This document shows, piece by piece, positions 53,053 to 53,964 of a stretch of 64,000 nucleotides of DNA. A program made the translations under genes and the position numbers. Positions within the stretch are counted from its first letter, which is position 1. The number at the start of each line of letters is the position of its first letter. The notes under the pieces were generated by a model that saw only the letters and a program-made list of their open reading frames with translations, was not told the origin of the DNA and did not search any database. The stretch comes from Escherichia coli (lineage in GTDB: Bacteria; Pseudomonadota; Gammaproteobacteria; Enterobacterales; Enterobacteriaceae): NCBI RefSeq assembly GCF_009931435.1, contig NZ_CP043414.1; one strand, 5' to 3'.

Positions 53053-53964
53053 ATGGATGACTGTGGTGCGGTTTTGCATAATATTGAAACAAAATGGCTT
53101 TATGATTTTCTGACCCTGGAAAAATGCCGCAACTTTTCCCAGGCGGCAGTCAGTCGCAACGTCTCACAACCCGCATTTAGCCGTCGCATCCGCGCGCTGG
53201 AACAGGCAATTGGCGTTGAATTGTTTAACCGCCAGGTGACGCCTCTGCAACTCTCGGAACAAGGGAAAATCTTCCATTCGCAGATCCGCCATCTGCTGCA
53301 ACAGTTAGAGAGCAACCTTGCAGAACTGCGTGGCGGCAGCGATTACGCGCAACGTAAAATCAAGGTAGCCGCTGCACACTCTCTTTCTCTCGGTCTTTTA
53401 CCGTCAATTATCAGCCAGATGCCGCCGCTCTTTACCTGGGCGATTGAAGCCATTGATGTTGATGAAGCGGTCGATAAACTGCGTGAAGGGCAAAGCGACT
53501 GTATTTTTTCCTTTCATGACGAAGATTTGCTGGAAGCGCCGTTTGACCACATTCGCTTATTTGAATCTCAATTGTTCCCCGTCTGCGCCAGTGACGAACA
53601 CGGAGAAGCACTTTTTAACCTCGCACAGCCACACTTTCCGTTACTGAATTACAGCCGCAACTCCTACATGGGGCGATTGATTAACCGTACCCTGACGCGC
53701 CACAGTGAGTTAAGTTTCAGCACCTTTTTTGTCTCGTCGATGAGCGAGCTTTTAAAGCAGGTTGCCCTCGACGGCTGTGGGATTGCCTGGCTGCCGGAGT
53801 ACGCCATCCAACAAGAAATTCGCAGCGGGAAGCTTATCGTTCTGAATCGGGACGAACTGGTGATCCCGATTCAGGCCTATGCATACCGGATGAACACCCG
53901 TATGAATCCCGTGGCCGAACGCTTCTGGCGCGAACTGCGCGAGCTGGAGATTGTGCTTAGCTGA
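53053..53964 (+). CDS. hypT: LysR-family hypochlorite-responsive regulator HypT
   Basis: 303 aa; N-terminal LysR HTH ([29 protein letters not shown]). Confidence 0.85.

Follow-up and report, generated by a model that had tools for sequence, protein, structure and literature searches.

The window, a 64,000-nt stretch of the Escherichia coli chromosome (contig NZ_CP043414.1), carries hypT (yjiE/qseD) and iraD (yjiD) as convergent neighbours that share eight nucleotides tail to tail, TTAGCTGA (Table 1). The first-pass annotation, made from the letters alone, had placed the hypT stop codon within the last codons of iraD and had named both genes. Direct reading of the sequence (on the plus strand, the end of hypT reads gag att gtg ctt agc TGA cat tct), the list of open reading frames (ORFs), and the RefSeq annotation all bear out the overlap, and NCBIfam equivalog profiles, matched over their full length, confirm the names along with RefSeq. 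HypT scored 695 bits against NF007488 (cut-off 301), and IraD scored 287 bits against NF010726 (cut-off 198) over profile positions 1-130; both matches reached the last position of the profile. Counted from a GTG, the minus-strand ORF covers 53957..54358 (133 aa); iraD is generally taken to begin at the ATG at 54349. The RefSeq annotations of a 99.9%-identical goat isolate, a K-12-like genome, and two other genomes sampled show the 8-nt overlap exactly as it is here. Two real protein-coding genes on opposite strands share their 3' nucleotides here, stops included; the overlap is real, ordinary, and already present in public annotation.

Wrong gene boundaries sometimes yield short overlaps, and we considered whether one ORF end had been miscalled so that the coding overlap is not real. 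Stop codons, however, are unambiguous in a way that starts are not, the reading frames are kept in all sampled genomes, and IraD of 130 residues was expressed and crystallised as residues 17-130 (PMC6546054). An annotation artefact was rejected on the full-length profile matches and the crystallised 130-residue protein, and we consider its probability negligible.

Table 1. Features at the hypT-iraD junction of the window and at related loci. Positions without a label refer to the window; labels beginning with L denote retrieved loci.
Feature	Position	Strand	Description
hypT (yjiE/qseD) CDS	53053..53964	+	303 aa; stop TGA at 53962-53964; NF007488; RefSeq
iraD (yjiD) CDS	53957..54349	-	130 aa; stop TAA (TTA on the plus strand) at 53957-53959; NF010726; RefSeq
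Overlap TTAGCTGA	53957..53964	.	hypT L302 (last 2 nt), S303, and stop; iraD V129 (last 2 nt), S130, and stop
hypT-proximal DNA GTGCTTAGCTGACATT common to GimA-positive chromosomes	53953..53968	.	last three hypT codons and stop; on the opposite strand, iraD N128-V129-S130 and stop
iraD codons 122-127 (C-S-A-T-L-E)	53969..53986	-	haplotype-specific tail from the W121 core to the joint; IraD alignment
C-rich, G-poor start of hypT read-through (first 78 nt), rut-like	53965..54042	+	C 0.36, G 0.19, C/G 1.87
Sigma-70 promoter-like site TTGTCA-16-TAGAAT	52993..53020	+	10/12 matches; 64-nt iadA-hypT spacer; candidate hypT promoter, consensus match only
idlP (ORF27), leader peptide of iraD	54346..54429	-	27 codons; stop overlaps iraD start (ATGA); RefSeq; Park et al. 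2017, PMC5574718
idlP-like leader ORF, other haplotypes	L003 about 4368-4451; L007, L008, L010, L011, L015		stop over iraD start (ATGA)
iraD-ptsP hairpin	L003 3950-3978; L008 about 6394-6422; L010, L015 equivalents		conserved from E. albertii to E. coli
E. whittamii iraD	L007 6001-6405		134 aa
E. whittamii hypT	L007 6385-7296		intact; ends ..KIEPG
E. whittamii overlap	L007 6385-6405		21 nt
hypT loss	L011 5394-5467; L025-L028 about 3394-3468		hypT promoter region and last 18 nt kept; still supply the iraD stop
Citrobacter tssE	L012-L014 5001-5372		IraD relative
Salmonella orphan hcp	L016 6888-7418		in the hypT-uxuR interval

Overlaps of this kind are not rare. E. coli has 663 overlapping adjacent gene pairs, 75 of them convergent, and the convergent overlaps have been ascribed to stop-codon movement (Huvet & Stumpf 2014, PMC4161906). 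The eight annotated convergent pairs of the window-equivalent region are spaced by -8, 9, 45, 56, 140, 173, 180, and 241 nt, and the hypT-iraD overlap is statistically unremarkable. A cramped 3' end of hypT is the rule in relatives too, as a convergent Asp/Glu-racemase gene follows it at 5 nt in Salmonella and at 7 nt in Citrobacter amalonaticus.

Several other features of the window were recorded. At about 1442-1452, only 9 nt separates the convergent genes for a MurR/RpiR regulator and a sodium:solute symporter, a second case of very tight packing. The immigration control region (mrr, hsdR-hsdM-hsdS, symE, and mcrB-mcrC) occupies about 10050-30700, with coordinates taken from a near-identical genome, and is followed after mcrB-mcrC by a gene for a 2,114-aa DEAD/DEAH helicase and then by yjiT. 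The gene iatD, encoding a 1,746-aa inverse autotransporter, lies at about 44419-49659.

Transcription and termination across the overlap

The first-pass annotation had also stated that no terminator lies between the two genes. This holds trivially, there being zero intergenic DNA, and it holds further downstream as well: a consensus scan found no intrinsic-terminator-like site on the plus strand over 53965-57000 or on the minus strand from 53956 down to 51750. No bidirectional terminator (a G+C-rich hairpin with an A-tract and a U-tract) was detected in 52800-54900, and no relevant one in 49500-57000. A lenient search for a hairpin followed by U residues gave none in the first 330 nt of either the hypT or the iraD read-through. 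A scan of 52800-55200 against Rfam (E <= 1) returned zero matches, and thus no known antisense sRNA or structured element was detected there.

The composition of the read-through differs between the strands. The C/G ratio of the first 78 nt past the hypT stop lies above 1.78, the value that marks the 95th percentile when 78-nt windows are taken from both strands across the entire 64,000 nt, whereas the iraD read-through has no comparable C bias. By composition, this stretch is a candidate Rho loading region, and termination of hypT read-through is probably Rho-dependent given its position just past the stop. Since a translatable mRNA needs its own stop codon, full-length hypT and iraD mRNAs both extend through the overlap and are complementary over at least 8 nt. 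Functional hypT and iraD mRNAs therefore cannot both have their 3' ends upstream of the overlap.

HypT is reportedly activated post-translationally, by methionine oxidation. For iraD, the regulation described targets the promoter region, with P1/P2, and the leader, on which CsrA acts through ORF27 coupling (Park et al. 2017, PMC5574718), and also involves DnaA and SspA (PMC11228462). Induction of the iraD unit under AZT is strong, at 260x for ytiC, 33x for ytiD, 18x for idlP, and 14x for iraD (PMC11228462), so polymerase traffic into the 3' end of hypT can rise sharply. The induction data found concern the iraD unit, and none were found for hypT. Neither iraD nor hypT appeared in the available part of the supplementary tables of two E. 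coli transcript-mapping studies, Adams 2021 and SMRT-Cappable-seq. A literature search for a link between iraD and hypT returned no linking paper, only incidental co-mentions.

GimA haplotypes and the anatomy of the joint

[quoted passage not shown] The part of Homeier et al. (2010, PMC2878320) available to us presents GimA as a 20.3-kb cluster at this site, with a G+C content of 46.2%, below that of the chromosome, and distinguishes three patterns: GimA-positive, a 342-bp pptE remnant, and GimA-negative, the last including K-12 MG1655. The same part reports that GimA has no mobility genes, tRNA, or repeats and argues for an ancestral locus under reductive evolution.

We recovered all three patterns. 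In the GimA-positive strain 82.0311, the interval runs hypT - nhaC - ibeA - dhaR - gcl - hyi - ... - gldA - dhaK - dhaL - ptsP - iraD. In APEC O2-211, which is of the remnant type, about 425 bp separates hypT from iraD and contains a 'PEP-binding protein' pseudogene. The window follows the GimA-negative pattern, with iraD and hypT adjacent and zero GimA-derived DNA between them. About 4,878 of the 5,426 complete E. coli genomes (~90%) covered at least 80% of a 161-nt query spanning the junction. GimA-side DNA (query L003:3545-4015, from the APEC O2-211 spacer) was found in 512 other genomes, some with an intact ptsP-like gene; in the 512, the distance from hypT to iraD is about 20 kb (GimA-positive) or about 0.4 kb (remnant), and a hairpin follows iraD. 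An idlP-like leader ORF precedes iraD in all Escherichia haplotypes, and among the loci retrieved RefSeq annotates it in the GimA-negative type only, not in the remnant or GimA-positive types.

The hairpin, with a stem of 11-12 bp and a predicted energy of -18 to -25 kcal/mol, separates iraD from the convergent ptsP-like gene in GimA-positive and remnant haplotypes. One compensatory change, C-G to U-A, was seen (L015). Clear A and U tracts are lacking, with only 2-3 U after the stem, and the element may serve as a bidirectional terminator of a non-canonical kind or may stabilise 3' ends. Nothing comparable was found in the window, where segments of equal size fold at only -5.6 and -10 kcal/mol.

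The haplotypes part within a few nucleotides of the overlap. In blastn comparisons, homology between the window and strain 82.0311 stops at 53968, 4 nt past the hypT stop, and homology with the remnant type stops at 53953. The hypT ends of the window and of the GimA-positive type are alike (..EIVLS, then the stop and CATT), whereas the remnant hypT ends in ..EIEPG. Up to residue 300, HypT is 98-99% identical among the types, and identity drops abruptly there, at the VLS and EPG alleles. IraD is conserved in the alignment to W121 and then diverges, giving 130 aa in the window and K-12 and 127 aa, ending W-HRTMPQ, in the GimA-linked form. In the window, the three final sense codons of iraD and its stop (AAT GTC AGC TAA, 53957-53968) sit in DNA that flanks hypT in GimA-positive chromosomes, where it is 20 kb from iraD. 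With its tail and stop in hypT-proximal DNA, iraD stays open as far as the first stop in its frame, which is inside hypT. The three possible frames into hypT on the antisense strand differ in outcome: a stop ahead of hypT in one, the 8-nt overlap seen here in another, and a predicted 213-nt overlap in the third.

A CATT microhomology is present on both sides in GimA-positive strains. A simple deletion between the two CATT copies was considered and set aside: it would retain the TAA of iraD itself, so that an extra 2-nt change is needed, and at ~23% divergence the joint is not reconstructable. The segment 54002-54613, comprising iraD, idlP, and the leader, is only ~77% identical between haplotypes, against 90-96% in the flanks (52002-53953 and 55983-58000). 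With such divergence, the window type did not arise by a simple, recent deletion from present-day GimA-positive strains. Together with the break at HypT codon 300, this divergence looks like an old trans-species polymorphism or an introgression block, and the hypT-iraD interval would thus be an old, recombining structural polymorphism.

Both protein tails appear unconstrained, judging from alignments and from the IraD-RssB crystal, in which the construct covered residues 17-130 but only 18-124 were modelled, leaving 125-130 unmodelled (Dorich et al. 2019, PMC6546054). The overlapped codons fall in these tails. Citrobacter TssE relatives of IraD end one residue after the conserved W (..GGWR). 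HypT C-termini differ by genus (..LQAAL in Salmonella, ..LHTVP in Citrobacter) and, within Escherichia, are either VLS (..EIVLS) or EPG (..EIEPG). The C-termini of IraD (127, 130, or 134 aa) and HypT (VLS or EPG) are thus strain-dependent and track the GimA state. In practical terms, iraD 3' constructs or hypT deletions in K-12 unavoidably hit the neighbouring gene.

The locus in other Escherichia and in relatives

A profile search of genome contigs with the IraD alignment yielded five loci only, its peptide patterns being narrow, and was supplemented by protein searches and exact-protein contig look-ups. All six GimA-negative E. coli junctions sampled, as well as E. ruysiae and E. marmotae, carry the octamer TTAGCTGA without variation. 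In E. whittamii, the longer IraD, with the tail ..HSSIPGVSARFNL, is encoded by a gene that overlaps an intact hypT by 21 nt; this overlap is independent, made by a different deletion joint. One record labelled 'E. coli' (L009) has an E. whittamii-like iraD tail beside a decayed hypT, and Escherichia sp. E1V33 is of the remnant type. Both the remnant form and that of E. whittamii evidently derive by deletion.

E. albertii is an outlying species of the genus. It carries a full-length ptsP (90.7% aa identity), dhaL, the hairpin, iraD, and yjiC, a gene content that suggests the ancestral order uxuR-yjiC-iraD-hairpin-GimA-hypT. In E. ruysiae and in E. marmotae of the 130-aa type, hypT is gone from its start to about codon 298, with GAGATTGTATTTAGCTGA and the iraD tail ..GKVS (encoded through TTAGCTGA) kept. 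These loci suggest that hypT was lost later while the iraD tail was retained, and that the pairing of the two genes would be dispensable. IraD proteins of 127 aa and 130 aa both occur in E. marmotae and fall in one 90% cluster.

Outside Escherichia, the closest relatives of IraD (46-49% identity) are encoded by tssE genes in Citrobacter type VI secretion (T6SS) clusters with the order vipA-vipB-hcp-tssE-tssF-tssG-clpV. The hypT-uxuR interval of Salmonella contains an orphan hcp with 49% identity to the Citrobacter hcp adjoining that tssE, and this Salmonella gene and iraD may both be remains of a single T6SS cluster that has decayed. No trace of hcp was found near iraD in Escherichia. A 605-bp contig of the 'Bacillus coahuilensis m4-4' assembly (NZ_ABFU01000118.1) also carries the E. 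coli iraD/hypT junction, at 95-100% aa identity, and E. coli DNA has almost certainly contaminated that assembly.

Origin of the overlap and comparison with known systems

We interpret the overlap as an incidental, nearly neutral by-product of a rearrangement at the GimA boundary, tolerated because both protein tails are dispensable, and put the probability of this reading at roughly three in four. Starting from the order uxuR-yjiC-iraD-hairpin-GimA-hypT, loss of GimA would have taken away both the stop codon of iraD and the hairpin. The iraD frame would then have run on to the first in-frame stop, within the last two codons of hypT, and the run-on would have been tolerated because neither C-terminal tail is needed. 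Without intergenic DNA or an intrinsic terminator, each full-length mRNA would end inside the other gene, and any interference by convergent transcription would be a side effect rather than a designed link. We infer both that the arrangement is neutral and that its polarity is loss of GimA rather than insertion; the GimA-positive form and the 8-nt joint are each spread across species (E. coli and E. marmotae), and recombination between Escherichia lineages blurs this history. The presence of the overlap in ~90% of sequenced E. coli and the invariant octamer in the sample are also compatible with some selective maintenance.

The opposite polarity, in which the 8-nt overlap is ancestral and GimA was inserted after ..GACATT, removing the last three codons of iraD and providing the short tail and the hairpin, is an unlikely alternative. 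The breakpoint at 53968/53969 fits an insertion equally well, three species (E. coli, E. ruysiae, and E. marmotae) share the 8-nt joint, and the low G+C content given for GimA in the available part of PMC2878320 points the same way. On the other hand, E. albertii has GimA-side genes and the hairpin adjoining iraD, and two further clear deletion derivatives exist in the remnant and the E. whittamii joint. The available part of PMC2878320 likewise notes GimA as free of mobility genes, tRNA, and repeats and argues for an ancestral locus with reductive evolution. Citrobacter TssE ends right after the conserved W, which leaves neither iraD tail obviously ancestral.

The first-pass annotation had thought transcriptional interference or antisense effects between the two stress pathways conceivable. 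Unterminated convergent transcription, through collision or duplex RNA, would on that reading couple RpoS stabilisation to the hypochlorite response. The lack of an intrinsic terminator on either strand for kilobases, the necessary complementarity of the full-length mRNAs over at least 8 nt, the strong AZT induction of the iraD unit, and the ~90% of E. coli genomes that carry the arrangement all speak for such coupling. Yet the described control of iraD acts at its promoter and leader and that of HypT is reportedly post-translational, and no publication found in our literature search links the two genes. The genes are spaced by 20 kb or 0.4 kb, with the hairpin, in 512 E. coli genomes; GimA-side genes and the hairpin adjoin iraD in E. 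albertii; the E. whittamii overlap differs in length; and E. ruysiae and E. marmotae have lost hypT. The C-rich stretch after the hypT stop also suggests early Rho termination of hypT read-through. These comparative data lean against a selected function of the overlap, and we regard functional cross-talk as improbable. A narrower form, confined to GimA-negative E. coli, in which iraD transcription induced by DNA damage (14- to 260-fold over the unit) continues unterminated into hypT and lowers HypT through collision or RNase III cleavage of the duplex, is more doubtful still. If it were true, GimA loss would have rewired two stress responses, and after replication stress GimA-positive (B2/ExPEC) and GimA-negative strains would not tolerate HOCl equally.

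Read as a by-product of rearrangement, the locus offers a tidy case of genome evolution: a short convergent overlap traced to one structural variant, with a second independent occurrence at this site and later loss of one partner. It supports the view that displaced stop codons give rise to such overlaps, which last where the protein tails are dispensable, and it would matter little for regulation.

Bidirectional intrinsic terminators are said to lie between convergent genes. GimA-positive haplotypes have a similar element in the conserved hairpin that parts iraD from the convergent ptsP-like gene, but this hairpin lacks clear A and U tracts, and the window has no such hairpin at all. With the convergent overlapping pairs of E. 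coli (PMC4161906), the junction shares two bona fide opposite-strand genes, a few common 3' nucleotides, and one moved stop. It differs in that the stop shift is tied to a specific large structural variant, not a point mutation, and in having an independent second instance at this locus. Excludons and other overlapping-3'UTR antisense arrangements (PMC7154746) are similar in their convergent genes, their partly complementary transcripts, here so by necessity, and the lack of a terminator between them. An excludon, however, requires by definition that long overlapping transcripts affecting each other's expression have been demonstrated, whereas hypT-iraD is known from sequence and is evolutionarily labile: the arrangement is not conserved in relatives keeping both genes, as the 20-kb or 0.4-kb spacing in 512 E. 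coli genomes and the E. albertii and E. whittamii loci indicate.

The closest comparison is with the GimA patterns themselves (PMC2878320). The chromosomal site is the same, the window is GimA-negative as is K-12 MG1655, and the reductive-evolution reading fits. To what the available part of that paper describes, our analysis adds the position of the joint, 4 nt past the hypT stop, and the variation of the iraD tail and stop with the pattern. It further adds that the GimA-negative pattern creates an 8-nt coding overlap and loses the hairpin, that E. whittamii has a 21-nt joint of its own, and that hypT has been deleted in E. ruysiae and E. marmotae.
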